A stretch of 64,000 nt of DNA from Leucoraja ocellata (GCA_036785375.1 JAWMAR010000471.1:124001-188000); one strand, 5' to 3'. Shown: positions 629 through 18,743, numbered from the stretch's first letter. Notes: generated by a model not told the origin, from the letters alone. Made by a program: numbers and translations.

Positions 629-825
629 TTATTTTACTGTGCGGTTCCTTCACTTTGCGATGCCGTGTATCTCGGGGGGGCTGCAATACACCGCGCCGCC
701 AGACAGCCGCGTCATACGGAGGGTGATTTCCCCTCCACGAAATATTCATTGAGATAGTTCATGAGGTTTATGTGTTTGAATTAAATCAGGTGCCAAATTT
801 CTCTGTGATCTTCCGGAAGAACGTG
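629..825 (-). pseudogene. Decayed inverted V relic (FR3 end + RSS-like), copy 1
   Basis: Minus strand reads ACGCGGCTGTCTGGCGGCGCGGTGTATTGC... then CACGGCA (667-661), 23 nt, GTAAAATAA (637-629). Resembles the TRLRDSAMYYC ending plus a 23-RSS. Confidence 0.5.
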
Positions 826-834
826 TGAGGGCGT

Positions 835-856
835 GAGAGAGAGGAAAAGAGAGAGA

Positions 857-893
<37 letters not shown>

Positions 894-910
894 AGAGAGA
901 GACAGAGAGA
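835..910. repeat. (GA)n microsatellite
   Basis: Seen directly in the sequence. Confidence 0.95.
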
Positions 911-1121
911 AAAAATTCAACAAACGGCAGGCGCTTTTACTTATGCCGAGTTAACATCAGTTATGAGAAAGTAGCCAATCAGCAGTCCTGAATCATAGAA
1001 ACGCCGTCTTCTGCACAAAATAAGATGCTTCCTATGATGTCCGCTTCATTGATACTCATCACACCAAGGAGACGGATAGTGAGCGGTCTATTCCCTCAGC
1101 ACGTTTACCAAATCAGGAGTA

Positions 1122-1298
1122 ATGTTCGACTTGTGGCCCTTCCTGGTAATTATGCTCGTGCGGGCAGGTTAGTGGGTATTTAAATGGTTAATATCCGTCA
1201 GAAAGGTCCAATCATCTTTCCGAAATGACAACGGCTCGTGTCCCTTGTTACAGGCATCTGTGAAGAGAAAGTGTCCCAGAGCCCGGCTGCGCTGAGGG
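1122..1298 (+). pseudogene. Truncated TCR V stub (B type): leader + first ~15 codons
   Basis: Leader MFDLWPFLVIMLVRAG at 1122-1167, donor GTTAGT, exon from 1254 (GICEEKVSQSPAALR). Then fused to the GA-rich upstream region of an A-type gene. Paralog of V5. Confidence 0.85.
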
Positions 1299-1556
1299 GG
1301 AGATAAGGAAAGAGGCGGGAGAAGTGGAAGGAGGAAAGAATGTTTACGGACTTTAGAAACAACAGCGTCGTTTAAATGTGCAAAAGCAGCATCCGGTATG
1401 GAGAATTGGCAATCAACCAACACCAGTAACTGAGGGAAACGCCCCCTTGTGGATAAAGTGATGAAACCCTGTTCACGTTTCATTCACACAGAACACACGA
1501 CGGAAGAACACTAATGCCGCTCCATTCTTTCAGCGTTCTGTCCAAATTAGGAATTC

Positions 1557-1989
1557 ATGTTCTCCATTTGCTCCTTTCTGATCATTATTCTCGTGCGACC
1601 AGGTGAGTTGGTGTTTAAATGGTCATTGTCCGCCAGCAGAGCCCGATCCTATCCAGGAGTTATCACGCGCGTATTTATTGTTACAGGAGTCGGTGAAGAT
1701 TCAGTGTCCCAGAGCCGGCTGCGCTGAGGGTCGAGGAAGGGCAGAACGCAACGATACATTGCAGCTACTCCACAGCAGTAAGTGGTGCAACTCTCTTTTG
1801 GTACATCCAATTTCCCGGTCAGGCGCCGAGATATGTGCTGAAAGGATTCAGTGAGGGGCCAGCCCTGCCAAGTCCAGATTTCTCCGACAGATTTTCTGCT
1901 GTCTTACACAAAGGGAGCAAGACATTTCCTTTAAATATCGCAGGGATGCAACTTTCAGGCCCGACGACATATTACTGCGCCTTGGAGCC
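1557..1989 (+). pseudogene. TRAV: V1: TCR alpha/delta V, family A, frameshifted
   Basis: Leader 1557-1602, V exon 1687-1989. A 1-nt deletion in cagagc(c)cggct gives an early TGA. Ends YYCALEP. RSS CACACTG-23-ACAAAAACC at 1990-2028. Confidence 0.85.
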
Positions 1990-2271
1990 CACACTGTTGC
2001 AGTGCGATCTGGGGTTCGAACAAAAACCACCCGCGAGATTCCGGCGAACATTCACCAGAGGGCGCTGCTGTACGATACATCCATAGTACATCTGATTGCA
2101 GGAGAGATCGGTCCATAACGGTCCGCATAATCTGCAATATCCCCACCTTTTCCCATGGGAAACGCGTCGTATCCTCGGTCACATCATTCCAAACAATCTC
2201 ATCACCCTGCTTCCTCGAGTGCATATATTGTGTGCATTTATCGGCTGACGTAATGGATGGATTAATATTTT

Positions 2272-3025
2272 AGAAACATAGGACATAGGTGCAGGATAGG
2301 CCAACTCGGCCCTTCGAGCCTGCACCGCCATTCAATATGATCATGGCTGATCATCCAACTCAGTATCCTTCACCTGCCTTCTCTCCATACCCCCTGATCC
2401 CTTTAGCAACAAGGGCCACATCTAACTCCTTCTTAAATATAGCCAATGAACTGGCCTCAACTACCTTCTGTGGCAAGTGAATTCCAGAGATTCACCACTC
2501 TCTGCGTGAAATTTTTTTTCTCATCTCCGCCCTAAAAGATTCCCCCCTTATCCGTAAACAATGACCCCCTGTACTGGACTTCCCCACATCGGGAACAATC
2601 TTCCTGCATCTAGCCTGCCGAACCCGTTAAGAATTTTGTTAGTTTCTATAAGATCCCCCCTCAATCTTCTAAATTCTAGCGAGTACAAGCCGAGCCTATC
2701 CAGTCTTTCTTCACATGAAAGTCCTGACATCCCAGGAATCAGCGTGGTGAACCTTCTCTGTACTCCCTCTATGGCAAGAATGTCTTTCCTCAGATTAGGA
2801 GAGCAAAAACTGTACGCAATACTCCAGGTGTGGTATTACCAAGACCCTGTACAACTGCAGTAGAACATCCCTGCTCCTATACCCAAATCCTTTTGCTATG
2901 AATCCTAACATACCATTCGCCCTCTTCACTGCCTACTGCACCTGCATGCCCACTGTTAATGACTGGTGTACCATCACACCCAGGTCTCGTTGCATCTCCC
3001 CCTTTCCTAATCGGCCACCATTCAG
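2272..3025 (-). mobile_element. CR1 LINE 3' fragment (long form)
   Basis: ORF 2548-2730 GLSCEERLDRLGLYSLEFRRLRGDLIE; tail at the left end. Confidence 0.9.
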
Positions 3026-4580
3026 AGAGGTGAACCGCCGAAAAGCACCTGGACCTGATGGTATGCCCGGTCGTGTTCTAAAACCTGTGCGGACCAACTG
3101 GCTGGAGTTTTTACGGACATTTTCAACCCCTCACTTCTGATGTCTGAGGTCCACCTGCTTTAAAAGGGCATCAATTATACCAGTGCCCAAGAAGAGTAAG
3201 GTGACGTGCCTCAATGACTATCGACCAGTGGCACTAACGCCGGTGGTGATGAAGTGCTTTGAGAGGTTGATCATAGAGCAAATCGACTCCTACCTCGACA
3301 AAAACCTGGACCCACTGCAGTTCGCTTACCACCACAACAGATCAACAGTGGATGCGCTCTCGCTGGCCCTCCACTCCGCTCTGGACCACTTGGACAACAA
3401 AAACTCATATGTCAGGCTGTTATTCATCGATTACAGCTTGACATTTAACACGATCATCCCCTCCAAGCTGGTTACCAAACTCGCAGAACCGGGTCTCTGC
3501 GCATCCTTCTGCAATTGGATCCCCGAGTTCCTCATTCACAGACCACATTCTGTTCGTATTGGTGGAAATGTGTCAGCCTCGATAACAATCAGCACGGGAG
3601 CACCTCAAGGCTGCGTGCTCAGCCCCTTGCTGTACTCACTCTATACTCATGACTGCGTAGCCAGTCACGGTGCGAACTCCATCATCAAGTTCGCGACGAT
3701 ACCACTGTTGTGGGACGCATCACTGATGGGGATGAGTCAGAGTACAGAAGAGAGATCGAGCAGCTGTCCATATGGTGCCAGCGCAATAACCTGGCCCTCA
3801 ACACCAGCAAAACCAAGGAACTGATTGTGGACATTGGAAGGAGTAGGAGAGGGACCCACAGCCCCATTTATATCAACGGGTCGGTGGTTGAAAGTGTCAA
3901 GAGCTTTAAATTCCTGGGCGTGCACATCTCTGAAGATCTTTCCTGGTCCGAGAACACTAACGCAATTATCAAGAAAGCTCAACAGCGCGTCTACTTCCTG
4001 AGAGGATTACGGAGAGTCGGTTTGTCAAGGAGGACTGTCTCTTACTTCTACACGTGCACAGTAGAGAGCACGCTGACCGGTTGCATCGTGGCTAGGTTCG
4101 GCAACTTGAGCGTTCTGGAGAGGAAAAGACTACAAAAAGTAACAAACACAGCCCAGCCCATCATCGGCTCTGACCTTCCTTCCATCGTGGGGATTTACCG
4201 CAGTCTCTTCCTCATAAAGGTTGGCAGTATCATCAAAGACCCACACACCATCCTGGCCACCACACTCATCTCCCTGCTACCTTCAGGTAGAAGGTACAGG
4301 AGCCTGAAGACTGCAACAACCAGGTCCAGGAATAGCTACTTCCCCACAGCCATCAGGCTGTAAACCTGGCTTGGACAAAACTCTGATTATTAATAACCCA
4401 TATTCTGTTATTTGCACTTTATCAGTTTATTTATTCATGTGAGTATATATTTATATTATGGTATATGGACACTTTTATCTGTTTTGTAGTAAATGCCTAC
4501 TTTGTTCTGTGTGCTGAAGCAAAGCAAGAATTGGATTGTCCTATACAGGGACACATGACATAAATTCACTTGTACTTGAG
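3026..4580 (+). mobile_element. Rex1/Babar-type non-LTR retrotransposon, 5'-truncated RT region + 3' UTR
   Basis: [71 protein letters not shown]. Contains frameshifts. Confidence 0.85.
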
Positions 4581-4603
4581 ATTGGTGGAAAGATAGCTGA
4601 ATG

Positions 4604-4845
4604 NNNNNNNNNNNNNNNNNNNNNNNNNNNNNNNNNNNNNNNNNNNNNNNNNNNNNNNNNNNNNNNNNNNNNNNNNNNNNNNNNNNNNNNNNNNNNNNNN
4701 NNNNNNNNNNNNNNNNNNNNNNNNNNNNNNNNNNNNNNNNNNNNNNNNNNNNNNNNNNNNNNNNNNNNNNNNNNNNNNNNNNNNNNNNNNNNNNNNNNNN
4801 NNNNNNNNNNNNNNNNNNNNNNNNNNNNNNNNNNNNNNNNNNNNN
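4604..4845. other. Assembly gap
   Basis: Run of N. Confidence 1.
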
Positions 4846-5101
4846 GAGATAAGAAAAAAGAGAGGCGGGGAAGTGAGAGGAGGAAAGAATGTTTAAGACT
4901 TTAAAAACAACAGCGTCGTTTAAATATGCTAAAGCAGCATCCGGTCTGGAGATTGGCCAATCAACAACATTAACTGAGGGAAACGCCCCCTTGTGGATAA
5001 AGTGATCAAACCGCTGTTCAACGTTTCATTCACACAGAACACACGACGGAAGAACACTAACACCGCTCCATTCTTTCAGCGTTCTGTCCAAATTAGGAAT
5101 C

Positions 5102-5528
5102 ATGTTCTCCATTTGCTCCTTCCTGATCATTATTCTTGTGCGGCCAGGTGAGTTGGTGTTTAAATGAATAGTGTCCGTCAACAGAGCCCGATCCTATCCA
5201 GGAGTTATCACACGTCGTATTTATTGTTACAGGAGTCGGTGAAGATTCATTGTCCCAGAGTCCGGCTGCGCTGAGGGTCGAGGAAGGCAGACGCAACGAT
5301 AAATTGCAGCTACTCCACAGCATACAATGCATATCTCTTTTGGTACATCCAATATCCCGGTCAGGCGCCGAGATATGTGCTGAAAGGATTCAGTGAGGGG
5401 CCAGCCATCACGTCCAGTTTCTCCGACAGATTTTCTGCTGTCTTACACAAAGGGAGCAAGACATTTCCATTAAATATCGCAGGGATTCAGCTTTCGGACT
5501 CGACGACATATTACTGCGCCTTGGCGCC
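5102..5528 (+). pseudogene. TRAV: V2: TCR alpha/delta V, family A, frameshifted, with 12-spacer RSS
   Basis: Leader 5102-5147, V exon 5233-5528. Reads gaggaaggcagacgc against paralog gaggaagggcagaacgc (2 nt lost). Ends YYCALAP. Confidence 0.85.
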
Positions 5529-5556
5529 CACACTGTTGCAGTGCGATCCAAAAACC
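5529..5556 (+). promoter_or_regulatory. RSS with 12-nt spacer, derived from a 23-RSS by an 11-nt deletion
   Basis: CACACTG ttgcagtgcgat CCAAAAACC. Confidence 0.75.
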
Positions 5557-5807
5557 ACCCGAGAGGTTCCGGAGAACACTCTCCAGAGGGCGCTGCTGCA
5601 CGATACATCCATAGTACATCTGATGCAGGAGCGATCGGCCTCATAACGATCCGCATAATCTGCAATATTCCCACCTTTTCCCATGGGAAACGCTTCGTAT
5701 CCTCGGCAACATCATTCCAAACAATCTCATCACCCTGCATCCTCGTGCGCATATGTTGTGTGCATTTATCGACTGACGTATTGGATGGATTAACACTTTC
5801 TCTATCA

Positions 5808-6560
5808 TAGAAACATAGAAACATAGAAAATAGGTGAAGGAGCAGGCCATTCGGCCCTTCGAGCCTGCACCGCCTTTCATTATGATCATGGCTGATCATC
5901 CAACTAAGTATCATGTACCTGCCTTCTCTCCATACCCCTGATCCCTTTGGCAACAAGGGCCACATCTAACTACCTCTTATATATAGCCAATGAACTGGCC
6001 TCAACTACCTTCTGTGGCAAGTGAATTCCAGAGATTCACCACTCTCTGCGTGAAAAATGTTTTCCTCATCTCCGTCCTAAAAGATTCCCCCCTTATCCTT
6101 AAACTGTGACCCTTGTTCTGGACTTCCCCATCATCGGGAACAATCTTCCTGCATCTAGCCTGCCCAACCCCTTAAGACTTTTGTAAGTTTCTATAAGATC
6201 CCCCCTCAATATTCTAAATTCTAGCGAGTACAAGCAGTGTCTATTCAGTCTTTTTTCACATGAAAGTCCTGACATCCCAGGAATCAGTCTGGTGAACCTT
6301 CTCTGTACATCCTCTATGGCAAGAATGTCTTTCCTCAGATTAGGAGACCAAAACCTGTACGCAATACTCCAGGTGTGGTATCACCAAGACCCTGTACAAC
6401 TGCAGTAGAACATCCCTGCTCCTATACCCAAATCCTTTTGCTATGAATGCTAACATACCATTCGCCCTCTTCACTGCCTACTGCACCTGCATGCCTACTT
6501 TTAATGACTGGTGTACCATCACACCCAGGTCTCCCCCTTTCCTAATCGGCCACCATTCTG
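5808..6560 (-). mobile_element. CR1 LINE 3' fragment (long form)
   Basis: (AGAAACAT)n tail at the left end; paralogous to 2272-3025. Confidence 0.9.
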
Positions 6561-7152
6561 AGGGGTGAACCCCCGAATAGCACCTGGTCCTGATGGTATG
6601 CCTGGTCGTGTTCTAAAAACCTGTGCGGACCAACTGGCTGGATTTTTCCGGACATTTTCAACCTCTCACTTCTGAGGTCTGAGGTCCCACCTGCTTTAAA
6701 AGGGCATCAATTATACCAGTGCCCAAGAAGAGTAAGGTGACGTGCCTCAATGACTGTCGACCAGTGGCACTACGCCGGTGGTGATGAAGTGCTTTGAGAG
6801 GTTGATCATGGAGCAAATCAACTCCTACCTCGCCAAAAACCTGGACCCACTGCAGTTCGCTTACCGCCACAACAGATCAACGGTGGATGCGATCTCGCTG
6901 GCCCTCCACTCCGCTCTGGACCACTTGGACAACAACACCTCATATGTCAGGCTGTTATTCATCGATTACAGCTTGGCATTTAACACGATCATCCCCTCCA
7001 AGCTGGTTACCAAACTCGCAGAACCGGGTCTCTGCGCATCCCTCTGCAATTGGATCCCCGACTTCCTCATTCACAGACCACAGTCTGTTCGTATTGGTGG
7101 AAATGTGTCATCCTCGAGAACAATCAACACGGGAGCTCCTCAAGGCTGCGTG
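6561..7152 (+). mobile_element. Rex1/Babar RT fragment (duplicate of 3026 onward, 3'-deleted)
   Basis: ORF 6778-7212 VMKCFERL...GAPQGCV. Then joined to V-downstream sequence caatctcatcac. Confidence 0.85.
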
Positions 7153-7223
7153 CAATCTCATCACACTGCTTCCTCGAGTGCATATATTGTGTGCATTTAT
7201 CGGCTGACGTAATGGATGGATTT

Positions 7224-7691
7224 TAGAAACATAGGACATATGGGCAGGAATATGCCACTCGGCCCTTCGATCCTGCACCGCCATTCATTAGGATCATGGC
7301 TGATCATCCAACTTAGTATCCCATCCCTGCCTTCTTTCCATACCCCCTGATGCATTTAGCCACAAGGGCCACATCTAACTCCCTCTTAAATTTAGCCAGT
7401 GAACTGGCCTCAACTACCTTCTGTGGCAGTGAATTCCAGAGATTCACCACTCTCTGTGTGAAAAATGTTTTTCTCATATCGGTCCTAAAAGATGTCCCCT
7501 TACTCTTAAACTGTGACCCCTTGTTCTGGATTTCCCCAACATCGGGAACAATCTACCTGCACCTAGCCCGTCCAACCCCCTTAAGAATTTCGTGAGTTTC
7601 TCTAAGATATCCCTCAATCTTCTAAATTCTAGCGAGTACAAGCCGAGTCCTATCCAGTCTTTCTTCATATGAATGTCCTGACATCCCAGGA
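7224..7691 (-). mobile_element. CR1 LINE 3' fragment (short form)
   Basis: ORF 7474-7749 contains GLYSLEFRRLR and GRLFPMLGKSRTRGHSL. Confidence 0.85.
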
Positions 7692-7997
7692 CTCTGCACC
7701 GATAGCTTCTGGGGGTGAAGTTTGATCCACTGAAGCTAACTACGGTCAATCGATAGTCACAAGATACAGAGACAGAGACAGAGAGAGAAAAGTCAACAAA
7801 CGGCAGGCGCTTTTACTTATGCCGAGTTAACATCAGTTATGAGAAAGTAGCCAATCACCAGTCCTGAATCATATAAACGCCCTCTTCTGCACAAAATAAG
7901 ATGCTTCTTACGATGTCCGCTTCATTGATACTCATCACACCAAGGAGACGGATAGTGAGCGGTCTATTCCCTCAGTACGTTTACCAAATCAGGAGTA

Positions 7998-8174
7998 ATG
8001 TTCGACTTGTGGCCCTTCCTGGTAATTATGCTCGTGCGGGCAGGTTAGTGGGTATTTAAATGCTTAATATCCGTCAGAAAGGTCCAATCATCTTTCCGAA
8101 ATGACAACGGCTCGTGTCCCTTGTTAGAGGCATCTGTGAAGAGAAAGTGTCCCAGAGCCCGGCTGCGCTGAGGG
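7998..8174 (+). pseudogene. Truncated TCR V stub (B type), second copy
   Basis: Near-identical to 1122-1298 with the same deletion junction. Acceptor mutated to ttagag. Confidence 0.85.
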
Positions 8175-8428
8175 GGAGATAAGGAAAGAGGCGGGAGAAG
8201 TGGGAGGAGGAAAGAATGTTTACGGACTTTAGAAACAACAGCGTCGTTTAAATGTGCAAAAGCAGCATCCGGTATGGAGAATTGGCCAATCAACACCTGT
8301 AACAGGGAAACGCCCCCTTGTGGATAAAGTGATCAAACCCTTGTACAACGTTTCATTCACACAGAACACACGACGGAAGAACACTAATGCCGCTCCATTC
8401 TTTCAGCGTTCTGTCCAAATTAGGAATC

Positions 8429-8868
8429 ATGTTCTCCATTTGTTCCTTCCTGATCATTATTCTCGTGCGACCAGGTGAGTTGCTGTTTAAATGGTTATTG
8501 TCCGTCAACAGAGCCCGATCCTATCCAGGACACGTCGTATTTGGAATTGTTACAGGAGTCGGGCAGATTCGAGTGTCCCAGAGTCCGGCTCGCTGAGGAC
8601 GAGACTGATTCCTAATTTGGACAGAACGCAACGATAAACTGCAGCTACTCCACAGCATACAGTAGTCCAACTCTATTTTGGTACATCCAATATCCCGGTC
8701 AGGCGCCGAGATATGTGCTGAAAGGATTCAGTGAGGGGCCAGCCCATCCACGTCCAGGTTTCCCGACAGATCTTCTGCTGTCTTACGCAAAGGGAGCAAG
8801 ACATTTCCTTTAAATATCGCAGGGATGCAGTTTTCGGACTCGAGGACATATTACTGCGCTATGGCGCC
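8429..8868 (+). pseudogene. TRAV: V3: TCR alpha/delta V, family A, multiple frameshifts + inverted insert
   Basis: Leader 8429-8474, V exon 8556-8868 with indels. Ends YYCAMAP. RSS CACACTG-23-ACAAAAACC at 8869-8907. Confidence 0.85.
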
Positions 8869-9148
8869 CACACTGTTGCAGTGCGATCTGGGGTTCGAAC
8901 AAAAACCACCCGCGAGATTCCGACGAACATTCACAGAGGGCGCTGCTGCACGATACATCCATAGTACATCTGATGCAGGAGGGATCCGCCCCATAACGAT
9001 CCGCATAATCTGCAATATTCCCACCTTTTCCCAAGGGAAACGCGTCGTATCCTCGGCGACATCATTCCAAACAATCTCATCACCCTGCTTCCTCGAGTGC
9101 ATATATTGTGACATTTATTGGCTGACCTAATGGATGGATTAACATTTT

Positions 9149-9610
9149 AGAACCATAGAAAATAGGTGCAGGTGTAGGCAAATCGGCCCTTCGAGCCTGC
9201 ACCGCATTCAATATGATCATGGCTGATCATCCAACTCAGTATCCTGTACCTGCTTCTTTCCATAACCCCTGATGCCTTTAGCCACAAGGGCCACATCTAA
9301 CCCCCTCTTAAATTTAGCCAGTGCATTGGCCTCAATTACCTTCTGTGGCAGTGAATTCCAGAGATTCACCACTCTCTGTATGCAAAATGTTTTTCTCACC
9401 TCGGTCCTAAAAGATTTCCCCCTTATTCGTAAGCGGTGACCCCTTGTTCTGGACTTCCCCAACATCGGGGACAATCTTCCTGCATCTAGCCCGCCCAACC
9501 TCTTAAGAATTTTGTAAGTTTCTATAAGAACCCCCATCTAATCTTCTAACTTCTAGCGAGTACGAACCGAGTCCATCCAGTCTTTCTTCATATGAAAGTC
9601 CTGTCATCGC
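9149..9610 (-). mobile_element. CR1 LINE 3' fragment (short form)
   Basis: ORF 9217-9537 LIETYKILK...QRVVNLWNSLP. Confidence 0.9.
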
Positions 9611-9750
9611 ATGAGTTTGCACAGGTAGCTTCTGGGGGTGAAGTTTGATCCACTGAAGCTAAGAACGGTCTATCGATCGTCACAAGATATGCATGGAATG
9701 GAAGGATATTGATGAACTGCGCGCAGAAATGATTATGTTCAATGTTCTAA

Positions 9751-9945
9751 TTATTTAGCGGTGCGGTGCCTACACTTTGCGACGCCGTGTATCTCAGGGG
9801 GCGGCAATACACCGCGCCGCCAGACAGCCGCGTCATACGGACGATGATTTCCCCTCCCCGAAACGTTCCTTGAGATAGTTCATGAGGTTTATGTGCTTGA
9901 AAAGTAATCAGTTGGCAGATTTCTCTTGGATCTTCCGGAAGAGCG
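9751..9945 (-). pseudogene. Decayed inverted V relic, copy 2
   Basis: Minus ORF ...MTRLSGGAVYCRPLRY, followed by CACGGCG (9789-9783)-23-GCTAAATAA. Confidence 0.55.
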
Positions 9946-9948
9946 TGG

Positions 9949-10153
9949 NNNNNNNNNNNNNNNNNNNNNNNNNNNNNNNNNNNNNNNNNNNNNNNNNNNN
10001 NNNNNNNNNNNNNNNNNNNNNNNNNNNNNNNNNNNNNNNNNNNNNNNNNNNNNNNNNNNNNNNNNNNNNNNNNNNNNNNNNNNNNNNNNNNNNNNNNNNN
10101 NNNNNNNNNNNNNNNNNNNNNNNNNNNNNNNNNNNNNNNNNNNNNNNNNNNNN
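9949..10153. other. Assembly gap
   Basis: Run of N. Confidence 1.
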
Positions 10154-10396
10154 GCTTTAACTTATGCCGAGTTAACATCAGTTATGAGAACGTAGCCAAT
10201 CACCAGTCCTGAATCATAGAAACGCCCTCTTCGGCACAAAATAAAATGTTCCCCTGGTAATCTCTTCATTGACACCCACCACACCAAGGAAACGGTTCGT
10301 GAGCGGTCTATTCTCTCGTTTCATTCACACAGAACACACGACGGAAGAACACTAATGCCGCTGCATTCTTTCAGCGTTCTGTCCAAATTAGGAATC

Positions 10397-10821
10397 ATGT
10401 TCTACATTTGTTCCTTCCTGATCATTATTCTCGTGCGACCAGTGAGTTGGTGTTTAAATGATTAGTGTCCGTCAACAGAGCCCGATCCTATCCAGGAGTT
10501 ATCACGCGTCGTATTTATTGTTACAGGAGTCGGTGAAGATTCAGTGTCCCAGAGTCCGGCTGCGCTGAGAGTCGAGGAAGGGCAGGACGCAACGATAAAT
10601 TGCAGCTACTCCACAACATACGGTCACTTTTGGTACATCCAATATCCAGGCGAGGAGCCGAGATATGTACTGAAAGGATTCAGTGAGGGGCCAGCCCTGC
10701 GAAGTCCAGATTTCTCCGCCAGATTTTCTGCTGTCTTACACAAAGGGAGCAAGACATTTCCTTTAACTATCGCAGGGATACAGCTATCAGACTCGACGAC
10801 ATATTACTGCGCCTTGGCGCC
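10397..10821 (+). pseudogene. TRAV: V4: TCR alpha/delta V, family A; open V exon but leader splice phase shifted
   Basis: Leader ends cca|gtgagt (paralogs ccag|gtgagt), so splicing to exon 10527-10821 is out of frame. The V ORF itself is intact (CSYSTTYGHFWYIQ...YYCALAP). RSS 10822-10860. Could be a 1-bp consensus error. Confidence 0.7.
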
Positions 10822-11245
10822 CACACTGTTGCAGTGCGATCTGGGGTTCGAACAAAAACCACCCGCGAGATTCCGGCGAACACTCACCAGAGGGCGCTGC
10901 TGCACGACACATCCATAGTACATCTGATGCAGGAGGGATCGGCCCCATAACGATCCGCATAATCTGCAATATTCCCACCTTTTCCCATGGGAAACGCATC
11001 GTATCCTCGGCAACATCATTCCAAACAATCTCATCACCCTGCTTCCTCGAGTGCACATATTGTGTGCATTATCGGCTGACGTGTTGGAAGGATTAACATT
11101 TTCTCTATCAATTTGCACCGGTTACTTCTGGGGGTGAAGTTTGATCCACTGAAGCTGACAACGGTCTATCGATAGTGACCAGATATGCTTGGAATGGAAG
11201 GATATTGATGAGATGCGGGAGAAATGATTAAGTTCTATGTTCTAA

Positions 11246-11441
11246 TTATTTTGCGGTGCGGTGCTTCCACTTTGCGACGCCGTGTACCTCAGGGGGCGGC
11301 AATACACCGGACCGCCAAACAGCCGCGTAATACCGAGGGTGATTTCCCCTCCACGAAATGTTCCTTGAAATAGGTCATGAGGTTTATGTGTTTTGAAAGA
11401 TATCAGGTGGCAGATTTCTCTGGGATCTTCCGGATGAACGT
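11246..11441 (-). pseudogene. Decayed inverted V relic, copy 3
   Basis: Minus ORF ...ITLGITRLFGGPVYCRPLRY, then CACGGCG (11284-11278)-23-GCAAAATAA. Confidence 0.55.
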
Positions 11442-12120
11442 GTGTGTGTGGGGGGGGGGGGGGGGGGGGGGGGGGGGAGGGGGAGAGAGAGACAGTCACA
11501 TATCTTGTGACTATGGCGAAGGAAATACGGCACATCTTTGTGCACAATCCGTAACAGCATGCCATATCCTGAGAGACGGTGAATGACCAACATGAACATA
11601 TGTACGCACACACTAATTGACATAAACTAACGCTAAGAAATTAATATTGAATTGCTAAACTTGCTGTTGTGTTTGTACTGCTTACAGCTGCAAGAACATG
11701 TAGCAATCAATAAAGGGCTATAGGGCTATTGCGAGTTTATGTACAGGGACATATCTATCCAATGCAGTGTATACTTGTATTCATACTTATGCATTTTAAA
11801 CATGTATGTCATGTTTTATACTTTGGCAATATAACAATGTTTATATCATGCCATTAAAGTTTTTTAAATTGAAAAATAGAAATTGAATTGAGAGAGAGAA
11901 AGGGAGAGAGAAAAGTCAACAAACGGCAGGCGCTTTAGCTTATGCCGAGTTAACATCAGTTATGAGAAAGTAGCCAATCACCAGTCCTGAATCATAGAAA
12001 CGCCCTCTTCTGCACAAAATAAGATGCTTCCTATGATGTTCGCTTCATTGACACGCACCACACCAAGGAGACGGATAGTGAGCGGTCTATTCCCGCAGTA
12101 CGTTTACCAAATCAGGAGTA

Positions 12121-12556
12121 ATGTTCGACTTGTGCTCCTTCCTGATAATTATGCTCGTGCGGGCAGGTGAGTGGGTATTTAAATGGTTAATATCCGTCAG
12201 AAAGGTCTAATCCACTTTCCGAAATGACCACGGCTCGTGTCTCTTGTTACAGGCATCTGTGAAGAGAAAGTGTCCCAGAGCCCGGCTGCGCTGAGGGCTG
12301 AGGAAGGACAGGACGTAACGGTAAGATGCAGCTACTCAACAACGTATACAACAAGCAATCTCTTCTGGTATAGCCAGTATCCAGGGGAAGCGCCGGAATA
12401 TGTGCTGAAGGGATATACCGACGGGTTAGCCGTTCCGTCTTCAGATGCCCCGGACAGACTTTCCGCTGTTCTACACAGAGGAAGTAAGACCTTCCCATTA
12501 AACATCTCCAGGATACACCTCTCGGACACGGTGACGTATTACTGCGCCATGAGGCC
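12121..12556 (+). CDS. TRAV: V5: TCR alpha/delta V segment, B type, intact
   Basis: Leader MFDLCSFLIIMLVRAG 12121-12166; V exon 12253-12556 with C, W and YYCAMRP. RSS CACACTG-23-ACAACAACC at 12557-12595. Confidence 0.92.
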
Positions 12557-13179
12557 CACACTGCTGCAGAGAGATAGAGGGTCCAAACAACAACCTTCCC
12601 CCGACATCCAGCGAGCGGACGTTAGAGGGCGCTGTTGTGTGAGCAAACTGCTGTGTAATTTATACGGCCACGGTTACACAAATCCATTACATTCCACACC
12701 ATACACAACATTCCCATCGGTTTCCATGTGAAACGGACCACTATTTCGGAACAGTATGCCCAACAGATTTCCCACCGTCGCTTGACGAGGTACAAACGTG
12801 GGTAGGACAGGTTTAGACGATATGTGCCAAATTCAGGCAGATGGGACGATTGTAGATGGGACACGTTGGTCGGTGTGGGCAGGTAGTGACGAAGAGCCTG
12901 TTTCCACATTGTAAGACTCTATGAGTCTATGACTCAATGAGTATACTTATTTTTTTTTGCGCAGTTATTAGACCGAATCATATTTCCCCTAATTTTCCTT
13001 CGAGACGCCTCTGAGGATCAATTGGATTATTTGAATCCAATAACGGCCTATAGATAGTCACAGGGTATGCAAGTGATGACGGTATATTGATGAGATTGAA
13101 GGTGATTGGTTTAACTTGGAATCATGGTCGGCTCGGACATTGAATGCCGAAACGCCTATCCCTGAGTTGTGCAGTTCCA

Positions 13180-13380
13180 TCTTTTAATTCTTGTGCGTTG
13201 GCACGGTGTATCCCCGTGTAGCCCAGCCCCGGAGGCAACAGATTGCGCCGTCAAACAGGCGGATAATGTCGAGGGAACACCTTAATTCCACGAAACGTTC
13301 ACTGAGGTAGTGCCTAACGCAAAAAAACTTTGAAAAAAGCCATTGCGCAAATTTCTCATTGACCTTCCGGCGAATGAACG
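13180..13380 (-). pseudogene. Decayed inverted V relic, copy 4 (more diverged)
   Basis: Homologous position and sequence (atccgcctgtttgacggcgcaatc...gggcta CACGGGG). Nonamer is poor. Confidence 0.35.
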
Positions 13381-13390
13381 CGGGAAAGGG

Positions 13391-14166
13391 NNNNNNNNNN
13401 NNNNNNNNNNNNNNNNNNNNNNNNNNNNNNNNNNNNNNNNNNNNNNNNNNNNNNNNNNNNNNNNNNNNNNNNNNNNNNNNNNNNNNNNNNNNNNNNNNNN
13501 NNNNNNNNNNNNNNNNNNNNNNNNNNNNNNNNNNNNNNNNNNNNNNNNNNNNNNNNNNNNNNNNNNNNNNNNNNNNNNNNNNNNNNNNNNNNNNNNNNNN
13601 NNNNNNNNNNNNNNNNNNNNNNNNNNNNNNNNNNNNNNNNNNNNNNNNNNNNNNNNNNNNNNNNNNNNNNNNNNNNNNNNNNNNNNNNNNNNNNNNNNNN
13701 NNNNNNNNNNNNNNNNNNNNNNNNNNNNNNNNNNNNNNNNNNNNNNNNNNNNNNNNNNNNNNNNNNNNNNNNNNNNNNNNNNNNNNNNNNNNNNNNNNNN
13801 NNNNNNNNNNNNNNNNNNNNNNNNNNNNNNNNNNNNNNNNNNNNNNNNNNNNNNNNNNNNNNNNNNNNNNNNNNNNNNNNNNNNNNNNNNNNNNNNNNNN
13901 NNNNNNNNNNNNNNNNNNNNNNNNNNNNNNNNNNNNNNNNNNNNNNNNNNNNNNNNNNNNNNNNNNNNNNNNNNNNNNNNNNNNNNNNNNNNNNNNNNNN
14001 NNNNNNNNNNNNNNNNNNNNNNNNNNNNNNNNNNNNNNNNNNNNNNNNNNNNNNNNNNNNNNNNNNNNNNNNNNNNNNNNNNNNNNNNNNNNNNNNNNNN
14101 NNNNNNNNNNNNNNNNNNNNNNNNNNNNNNNNNNNNNNNNNNNNNNNNNNNNNNNNNNNNNNNNNN
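13391..14166. other. Assembly gap
   Basis: Run of N, followed by a GA-rich tract to ~14345. Confidence 1.
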
Positions 14167-14560
14167 AAAGAAAAGAGGAAGAGAGCTAGAACCTGAGACG
14201 GGAGGTGTAGATTGGCGGGAAAATAGCTGGATGGGGCGAGAGCCAAAGTGAGAGCCAGAGAGAGAGAGAGTGAGAGAGAGAGTGCTGGAGAAAGTGGGAG
14301 AGAGAGATAAGGAAAGAGAGGCGGGAGAAGTGAGAGGAGGAAAGAATGTGTACGGACTTAAAAAACAACAGCGTCGTTTAAAAGTGCAAAAGCAGCATCC
14401 GGTCTGGAGAATTGCCCAATCAACACCAGTATCTGAGGGAAACGCCCCCTTGTGGATAAAGTGATCAAATCGCTGTTCAACGTTTCATTCACACAGAACA
14501 CACGACGGGAGAACACTAATGCCGCTCCATTCTTTCAGCGTTCTGTCCAAATTAGGAATC

Positions 14561-14988
14561 ATGTTCTCCATTTGTTCCTTCCTGATCATTATTCTCGTGC
14601 GGCCAGGTGAGTTGGTGTTTAAATGGTTAGTGTCCGTCAACAGAGACCATCCTATCCAGGAGTTATCACGCGTCGTATTTATTGTTACAGGAGTCGGCGA
14701 AGAGTCAGTGTCCCAGAGTCCGGCTGCGCTGAGGGTCAAAGAAGGGCAGAACGCAACGATAAATTGCAGTTACTCCACAACTGCATACACTCTCTTCTGG
14801 TACATCCAATATCCCGGTCAGGCGCCGAGCTATGTGCTGAAAGGATTAAGTGATGGGCCAGCCCAGCGAAATCCAGATTTCTCCGACAGATTTTCTGCTG
14901 TCTTGCACAAAGGGAGCAAGACATTTCCTTTAAATATCGCAGGGATGCAGCTTTCGGACCCGACGACATATTATTGCGCCATGACGCC
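14561..14988 (+). CDS. TRAV: V6: TCR alpha/delta V segment, family A, intact
   Basis: Leader 14561-14606; V exon 14691-14988 (SVSQSPAALRVKEGQNATINC...WYIQYPGQAP...YYCAMTP). RSS CACACGG-23-ACAAAAACC at 14989-15027. Confidence 0.92.
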
Positions 14989-15277
14989 CACACGGTTGCA
15001 GTGCGATCTGGGGTTCGAACAAAAACCACCCGCGAGGTTCCGGAGAACATTCACCAGAGGGCGCTGCTGTACGATAAATCAATAGTACATCTGATGCAGG
15101 AGCGAACGGCCCCATAACGGTCCGCATAATCTGCAATAGTCCCACCTATTCCCATGGGAAACGCATCGTATCCTCGGCAACATCATTCCAAACAACCTCA
15201 CCACCCTGCTTCCTCGAGTGCATATATTATGTGCATTCTCGACTGACGTATTGGATGGATTAACATTTTCTCTATCA

Positions 15278-15756
15278 TAGAAACCTAGAAACATAGAAAA
15301 TAGGTGCAAGAGTATAGGCCTTTCGGCCCTTCGAGCCTGCACCGCCATTCATTATGATTATGGCTGATCATCCAACTCAATATCCTGTACCTGCCTTTTC
15401 TCCATACCCCCTGATCCCTTTAGCCACTAGGGCCACATCTAACACCCTCTCAAAATAGCCAATGAACTGGCCTCAACTACCTTCTGTGGCAGAGAATTCC
15501 AGAGTTTCACCACTCTCTGTGTGCAAAATGTTTTTCTCATCTCGGTCCTAAAAGATTTCCCCCATTATCCTTAAACTGTGACCCCCTTGTTCTGGACTTC
15601 CCCAACATCGGAAACAATCTTTCTGCATCTAGCCTGTCCAACCCCTGAAGAATTTTGTAAGTTTCTATAAGATTCCCCCTCAATCTTCTAAATCCTAGCG
15701 TGTACAAGCCGAGCCTATCCGGTCTTTCTTCATATGAAAGTCCTGACATCCCAGGA
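15278..15756 (-). mobile_element. CR1 LINE 3' fragment (short form)
   Basis: ORF 15537-15764 PGMSGLSYEER...LIETYKIL. Confidence 0.9.
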
Positions 15757-15881
15757 CTTTGCACCGGTAGCTTCTGGAGGTGAAGTTTTATCCACTAAAA
15801 CTAACAACGGTCATAGGATATGATTTCAATGGAAGGATATTGATGAGATTCGGGCAGAAGTGATTATGTTCTATCTTCTAA

Positions 15882-16042
15882 TTATTTTGCGACGCCCTGT
15901 ATCTCAGGGGGCGGCAATACACCGCGCCGCCACACAGTCGCGTCATATCGAGGGTGATTTCCCCTCCACCAAATGTTCCTTGAGATAGTTAATGAGGTTT
16001 ATGTGCTTGGAAATAAATCAGGTGCCAGATTTCTCTGGGATT
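15882..16042 (-). pseudogene. Decayed inverted V relic, copy 5 (RSS spacer deleted)
   Basis: Same block as 9751-9945, with the spacer lost between two tttgcg repeats. Confidence 0.45.
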
Positions 16043-16874: not shown

Positions 16875-17182
16875 CACACTGTTGCAGAGAGATAGAGGGT
16901 TCAAACAAAAACCGTACGACGGTCCTCTTTCGAGAGGCCACCAGAGGGCGCGGTTGTGTGAGAAATCTGTAGCGTATCTGATGCAACCACGATCGCGAAC
17001 TTCGAGAGCGATCTACACCGTCCACAATATTCCACTCGTTTTCCACGTGAAACATGCCATTCCCTCGGCAAAATGACGCCAAACAGTTTCCCCACCCCTG
17101 CTATATCGACTGCATTTATTGGTCTAGTTATTAGTCCATGGGATGGCGGAACTCTCATATGAGGAACGATTGAAAAGACTAG

Positions 17183-17878: not shown

Positions 17879-18477
17879 ATTGAAAAGACTAGGCGTGTAT
17901 TCACTGGAGTTTAGAAGGATGAGGGGGTTCTCAAAAGAGACATATACAATTAAAAAAAAGGACTGGACAAGCTAGAGGCAGGAAAAATGTTCCCAATGTT
18001 GGGCGAGTCCAGAACCAGGGGCACAGTCTTAGAATAAAGGGGTGGTTAAATGACCACCCAGAGAGTTGTGAATTTAGGGAATTCCCCGCCACAGAGGGCA
18101 GTGGAGGCCAAGTCACTGGATGGATTTAAGAGAGAGTTAGATAGAGCTCTAGGGGCTAGTTGAGTCAAGGGATATGTGGAGAAGGCAGGCACGGGTTATT
18201 GATAGGGGACGATCAGCCATGATCACAATCAATGTCGGTGCTGGCTCGAAGGGCCGAATGGCCTCCTCCTGCACCTATTTTCTATGTTTCTATGTAGATG
18301 GGAAAAAAAAATCTCCCATCCACACGTCTCTGTGCGGTTAACTTTGATCCGTTGAAAGTAATAGCGACTTTAGATAGTCACAAAATATCCTGGGAATGGA
18401 GGCATATTAATGAGATGCCGGCAGAAATATTCAGTTTAACTGGACATCATGTTTGGCACGGACATTGTGGGCATATA

Positions 18478-18652: not shown

Positions 18653-18743
18653 ATAGTGAGTGGAGGCGATGTCGCACCGTTGAATTGCAACTACACAGCT
18701 ACAATCACGAGCCATCTTGGACTAATCTGGTTCCGTCAACATG

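Follow-up and report, generated by a model that had tools for sequence, protein, structure and literature searches.

An old inverted V-gene relic, probably a neutral passenger of a multiplied V unit, in a T cell receptor locus of a cartilaginous fish

Results

The window, a stretch of 64,000 nucleotides, corresponds to positions 124,001–188,000 of scaffold C471, and the whole 1.6-Mb scaffold was surveyed in stretches. On the scaffold, 174 open V exons are accompanied by an RSS (108 on the plus strand and 66 on the minus strand); they form 28 clusters at 70% identity, and J segments flanked by 12-RSSs are also present. Of the 150 candidates that were scored out of 618, none was a constant exon of this scaffold. 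The gene set points to a cartilaginous fish and to its TCR alpha/delta locus. All intact V genes of the window lie on the plus strand and possess 23-RSSs, and five mutually homologous blocks were found on the minus strand at the places given in the original prediction. The features are as follows.

629–827, minus strand: relic copy 1; V end with a 1-nt insertion, heptamer CACGGCA at 661–667, 23-nt spacer, nonamer-like GTAAAATAA at 629–637, RSS score of 0.5 bit
9751–9947, minus strand: relic copy 2; heptamer CACGGCG at 9783–9789, 23-nt spacer, nonamer-like GCTAAATAA
9665–9745, minus strand: dispersed-repeat fragment, shown for copy 2, directly behind the relic nonamer and outside the V relic; matches of about 80% on four other contigs, with no V gene there
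10517–10860, plus strand: example of an intact family A V exon with 23-RSS facing a relic (Pfam V-set, E = 8.5e-14)
10884–10897, plus strand: CTCF-like motif TCACCAGAGGGCGC, 23 nt behind the nonamer of the family A V gene; others at 2052, 5580, 15051 and 16938
11246–11441, minus strand: relic copy 3; CACGGCG, 23 nt and GCAAAATAA; at 12.1 bits the best-kept RSS among the window copies
13188–13390, minus strand: relic copy 4, of a diverged sublineage in a B-type unit; heptamer CACGGGG at 13212–13218, 15-nt spacer by alignment
15882–16042, minus strand: relic copy 5; heptamer CAGGGCG (CAC lost), spacer shortened by 21 nt
18334–18428, minus strand: unit remnant consisting of flank only, behind the V gene at 16875; a shorter remnant lies at 7707–7766
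1990, 8869, 12557 (family B), 14989 and 16875 (B2), plus strand: heptamers of other intact V genes

The copy 2 sequence quoted in the original prediction was correct, and CAC is indeed retained in four of the five window copies, copy 5 having CAG. A spacer of exactly 23 nt, which had been claimed for all five copies, is present together with CAC in copies 1, 2 and 3, whereas the spacer measures 15 nt in copy 4 and is shortened by 21 nt in copy 5, so that the claim was overstated for the set as a whole. Each amplified unit contains one relic. In the window the relic lies 462–922 nt from the preceding V gene, heptamer facing heptamer: copy 2 is arranged tail-to-tail with the V gene that has its heptamer at 8869, at a distance of 920 nt, and for copy 3 the distance to the V heptamer at 10822 is 462 nt.

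A search with a profile of the relic detected 12 full copies on the scaffold, the five of the window and seven in the contig at 1–113,891, with none elsewhere in the genome. The seven additional copies are likewise opposite in strand to their V neighbours. This contig mirrors that of the window across a 200-N join at scaffold position 113,892, as does the J cluster, and the two contigs are most likely two haplotypes placed within one scaffold. A real giant palindrome was also considered and was judged less likely. Given that haplotype duplication is likely, the seven additional copies are probably alleles or allelic paralogues. Because the scaffold is mirrored, the orientation of the relic is stated here relative to neighbouring V genes rather than to J; relic and V neighbours lie within a single gap-free contig, so that their opposite orientation is unaffected by the mirroring. 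The relic is also covered by contigs from runs labelled as organisms A, B and C in three studies, and is therefore common to related organisms.

We scored DNA with an ungapped matrix for the V end and RSS (48 nt of exon end and 39 nt of RSS) built from 16 V family representatives, including family C, the family whose likeness to the relic had already been noticed in the original prediction. Among 2,515,828 positions scanned in the first 1.258 Mb, 184 V ends exceeded 30 bits. Ten relic copies were tested, and eight of them ranked immediately after these V ends, at 6.8–19 bits, mixed only with four off-register real V ends, and the maximum for the reversed-sequence null was −2.9 bits. Copies 1 and 4 fail this ungapped matrix because of indels. 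With the relic profile run against 1.6 Mb, the best non-self V match was an intact V gene at 941,203 (E = 0.0022, compared with a best null E of 1.3), which is absent from the 16-family matrix and matches TCR alpha chains in PDB; a family C V gene followed at E = 0.0072. As far as the heptamer, the relic and the V gene at 941,203 align without gaps and in the same codon register, and the relic has DNA homology to the end of V framework 3 in heptamer register. Gapped DNA profiles gave E values of 0.003–0.22 for 8 of the 12 relic copies with family C, and of 4.8 or worse, which is not significant, for the relic with all families at scaffold scale. Identity by codon position was 0.44/0.50/0.45, and a synonymous-site argument from pairwise alignment was dropped, given that the codon positions showed no pattern.

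The matrix scan and the reciprocal profile match support, at the DNA level, the earlier proposal of an old V gene in opposite orientation, and we conclude from these sequence comparisons that the relic represents the 3' end of a V gene encoded on the other strand from its neighbours. Likeness of the ending to that of family C was confirmed as V-end similarity at the DNA level, although the best match is the V gene at 941,203, with family-C-like genes close behind. These scores are nearly equal and too close to point to one parent family. In a search that ignored very common words, all nine matches of the V-end query fell on this scaffold, and four off-scaffold matches of a separate search concerned the flank behind the nonamer rather than the block proper. 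The block proper is thus confined to this antigen-receptor scaffold, and only its downstream flank, which we take to be LINE-tail-like, is dispersed.

At the protein level, a Pfam scan returned no V-set match in any of the three relic frames tested. A local V protein HMM gave the relic at most 2.4 bits, not above background, with 203 of 4000 random windows reaching 2 bits. The check by V-set HMM put forward in the original prediction therefore failed, a result compatible with relic status in that a decayed remnant of 20 codons would be expected to fail such a test. The upstream 110 nt of the block lack V similarity (z of at most 2.4). Nine copies have a readable 5' flank, those of copies 2, 4 and 5 running into N, and in all nine a simple repeat terminates the block; nothing significantly resembling the 5' portion of a V gene lies beyond it on the relic strand. 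The best match obtained in these nine copies when the missing 5' part was sought on that strand had an E value of 0.11, and such best matches correspond to neighbouring V exons read in antisense. The relic strand yielded neither a leader nor a promoter, and the full set of features of a functional V gene (a leader, an open V exon, the tryptophan and both cysteines) is not present in the relic. Reading of the block as V on the strand of its neighbours gave no matches, and a homologue search with the V gene at 941,203 returned no candidate and hence no outside orthologue or name. The demonstrably V-derived portion is limited to some 60 nt together with the heptamer and the start of the spacer.

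RSS strength was estimated with a matrix trained on the RSSs of the locus itself, with leave-one-out scoring for the working clusters. Window copies 1 to 5 scored 0.5, 5.0, 12.1, 6.3 and 4.1 bits, respectively, a 23-nt register having been imposed on copies 4 and 5. Relic scores ranged from 0.5 to 13.6 bits, compared with 19.3–37.8 bits for working RSSs in 21 of 24 leave-one-out clusters, the remaining three clusters having 22-nt spacers that were scored out of register. The relic RSSs nevertheless correspond to the 98.8–99.9th percentile of 51,425 non-V CAC sites; the scoring check thus placed them above background CAC sites and below working RSSs. The nonamer on its own is weak: scored in its true register, it reaches no more than 0.1 bit in any window copy, and the nonamer of copy 3 matches the consensus at 5 of 9 bases.

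Differences in heptamer, spacer and nonamer amounted to 0.13/0.08/0.09 among nine main-type relic copies, with 0.11–0.12 in the flanks, and to 0.07/0.008/0.000 among 11 working family A genes. With alleles included and columns not independent, Fisher's test yielded p values of 0.70 for the relic RSS versus flank and 0.025 for the relic RSS versus working RSS. The relic RSS falls outside the working range in score and shows no sign of purifying selection; it decays neutrally, at the rate of its flanks, while the RSSs of its neighbours are nearly frozen. Three RNA runs, read to 1–5%, yielded 0–2 reads, with none on the intact V gene either.

Identity between A-type and B-type units is 62% for the relic, as for copy 4 versus the other copies, 60% for the non-coding flank, and 75% for the V exon. 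In both sublineages TGC replaces the second tyrosine, the cysteine codon is gone, and the 5' end falls at almost the same position. These common lesions suggest that inactivation of the gene preceded the divergence of the A and B units. The original prediction had the relic amplified together with the family A unit; it is carried in that unit, but also in the B-type unit (copy 4), and would predate the A/B split. The 63 nt of the V end are less variable than the flanks (12 of 63 versus 63 of 207 columns, p = 0.08) and are rich in CpG (observed/expected, 1.25–1.43), features that leave room for weak constraint.

Several distant V families, A and B among them, have a forward CTCF-like motif located 23–25 nt behind the nonamer, and this motif is strongly conserved across family A copies. 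Motifs were called against the CTCF consensus.

Discussion

We consider that the block is probably an old inverted TCR V pseudogene relic that was multiplied together with the family A/B V unit as a neutral passenger. V pseudogene relics, truncated and out-of-frame remnants of V genes, are a known class in TCR and immunoglobulin loci. The present relic resembles them in consisting of a truncated V end that has lost the conserved cysteine, in its decayed RSS, and in its multiplication inside tandem units. It differs from such relics generally in lying on the strand opposite to the V gene of its unit, in its great age (62% identity between sublineages), and in that only about 60 nt are recognizable. 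It shares with the intact minus-strand V gene at C471:941,203 and with family-C-like V genes (440,288 and 291,947) an LSDGAVY-type ending, a CACGG-type heptamer and the register from codon to heptamer, but its identity to them is only 60% over 70 nt and nothing similar is found upstream.

Functional V segments in inverted orientation are described for the TCR beta and delta loci, where they follow C (PMC12227049), and V-kappa clusters can likewise be inverted. The relic is similar to these segments in its opposite orientation and in that it would join by inversion (PMC12227049; PMC11153149), whereas those segments are intact with usable RSSs and the relic lacks both leader and cysteine and its RSS is weak. 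Nor is the inverted arrangement special to the relic, given that seven adjacent pairs of intact V genes are arranged tail-to-tail within gap-free contigs of the scaffold, 2.6–10.7 kb apart. The relic, tail-to-tail with the A/B V genes, does support the earlier view that it records an ancient inverted V arrangement. It is accordingly not very unusual and belongs to the known V pseudogene relics. Searches of titles and abstract openings, with few subscription papers included, revealed no description of such a relic.

The order of events might have been as follows. An intact V gene would have stood tail-to-tail with the ancestor of the A and B genes, as do the intact pairs elsewhere in the locus. 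It would then have lost its leader, 5' half and second cysteine, with the repeat fragment coming to adjoin the nonamer. Duplication of the unit into A and B types would have given rise to the two relic sublineages, and further amplification of the A unit would have been accompanied by independent spacer deletions. Carriage of a neutral passenger during multiplication of an array is ordinary in such loci and is likely here, and the relic likely does nothing today.

The proposal that the relic acts as a cryptic RAG target was not borne out. A cryptic 23-RSS that still functions, either through inversional joining to J-alpha 12-RSSs or by acting as a decoy for RAG at an appreciable frequency, would be in keeping with the CAC kept in most window copies, with the high rank of the relic RSSs among non-V CAC sites, and with use of the heptamer CACGGCG by one intact V gene of the locus. 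We nevertheless regard it as very improbable, given that the relic signals score under 21 of the 24 working clusters, that the spacer is broken in copies 4 and 5, that the signal changes at the neutral rate, and that the relic strand is devoid of a detectable leader or promoter. Inversional joining by diffusion in the mouse is, moreover, ascribed to strong RSSs (PMC11153149). A role as a meaningful RAG target is thus unlikely, and occasional RAG nicking at a relic CAC would count as background.

Reuse of the V end as a regulatory element kept by selection, either as half a CTCF site or as a CpG-rich element near the promoter of the next V gene, appears similarly remote. The three changes in YYCA read CTCAGGGGGCGG on the plus strand, which corresponds to the 3' part of the CTCF consensus and runs in the same direction as the CTCF-like motifs adjacent to RSSs; the slightly lower variation and the CpG content of the V end also fit such a role. 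The relic sequence, however, has mismatches at 3 or 4 of 14 positions, 5' bases among them, and the motif is lost in copies 1 and 4, whereas motifs beside working RSSs have 0–2 mismatches and a divergence of 0.013. The relic core neither matches the full core motif nor is conserved across copies. A broader scheme, in which the whole unit is a RAG-scanning module composed of a working V gene, its RSS, the adjacent CTCF site and an inverted relic rewritten as a second CTCF-like site of the same direction or as a RAG decoy, so as to tune use of neighbouring V genes in a cartilaginous fish, is in our estimation equally improbable. About as improbable is a chance look-alike, in which DNA unrelated to V genes, or a same-strand V gene read in antisense, happens to resemble a V end: such look-alikes occur in the locus, where antisense V framework 1 reads AAIYRCVL, and the relic has no protein-level matches, but exon, heptamer and spacer register are jointly far above the null, the match to a V gene outside the matrix (941,203) is reciprocal, and the same-strand reading finds nothing.

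As a neutral relic, the block is a small historical marker of an inverted V gene that stood beside the A/B ancestor before the families split. It also provides a side-by-side gauge of the conservation of working RSSs versus a dead one, and opens no new mechanism. The CTCF-like motifs behind the working RSSs are a lead that deserves more attention than the relic itself. In mouse, a CBE located just 3' of the RSS promotes the use of proximal VH genes (PMC7930373), and the motif described here is likewise situated just 3' of a working V RSS; it differs in being a putative site in a TCR alpha/delta V clade of a cartilaginous fish and in belonging to the neighbours of the relic rather than to the relic. 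Our search for literature on CTCF at V-gene RSSs of shark TCR loci found no paper that combines these subjects, which does not prove that the matter is unpublished. If CTCF binds these motifs, an aid to RAG scanning of the mouse Igh type would reach back to the TCR loci of cartilaginous fish.

Scaffold structure

The V gene array at positions 1–113,891 of the TCR alpha/delta scaffold mirrors that at 114,092–290,217, with a 200-N join between the two, in blocks of up to 12.7 kb with 97.7–98.9% identity and with copy numbers that differ between the arms. The J cluster also has two mirror-image arms (95–97.5% identity), one on either side of a 200-N join at 1,494,589, and two further contig pairs are duplicated. 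Both haplotypes were likely scaffolded together, and gene counts and V-to-J orientation across the gaps of this scaffold are therefore unreliable. Contig C1015 of the same assembly, which carries three pairs of C1-set exons at mirror coordinates (coordinate sums, 365,247–365,249), is likely another palindromic assembly.

V fragments and atypical V genes

Window 18655–18738, plus strand: fragment from the 5' part of a family C V exon, in the same orientation as the V genes around it, at the boundary from families A and B to family C
Scaffold 197,811–197,942 and 251,624–251,755, minus strand: short inverted family C V fragments within the plus-strand family C array
Scaffold 941,206–941,496, minus strand: single-copy intact V

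In the intact V, leucine replaces the conserved tryptophan (LHLYRQ), and contigs C2754 and C4017 contain 96% copies of this gene. The RSS of the family A V at window 5529 scores as having a 12-nt spacer (CACACTG, 12 nt, CCAAAAACC), apparently as a result of spacer deletion. Two V types alternate in pairs at 1.02–1.24 Mb of the scaffold, one without the usual WYRQ and with a 22-nt spacer, the other conventional with a 23-nt spacer; we take these pairs to be candidates for an arrangement like NAR-TCR cassettes.

CTCF-like motifs at V genes

Motifs were scored against the CTCF consensus.

Window 2052, 5580, 10884, 15051 and 16938, plus strand: CTCF-like motif behind the nonamer
Scaffold V genes at 119,149, 471,570 and 950,436: further such motifs
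Window 1452, 4996, 8323 and 14455, minus strand: CCACAAGGGGGCGT, a CTCF-like motif in the reverse direction with 2 mismatches, which lies upstream of the leaders of family A genes

The motif behind the nonamer lies in the forward direction at a distance of 23–25 nt. It was present with at most 2 mismatches in 5 of the 28 family representatives and with 3 mismatches in 3 more, all of which have the heptamer CACA[CT]TG, and was absent behind the RSS of family C. A match with at most 2 mismatches is expected by chance in 0.08% of such stretches. Among family A copies, divergence of the motif was 0.013, compared with 0.09 for the flank. This candidate motif behind skate V RSSs resembles the RSS-adjacent CTCF-binding elements of mouse proximal VH genes.
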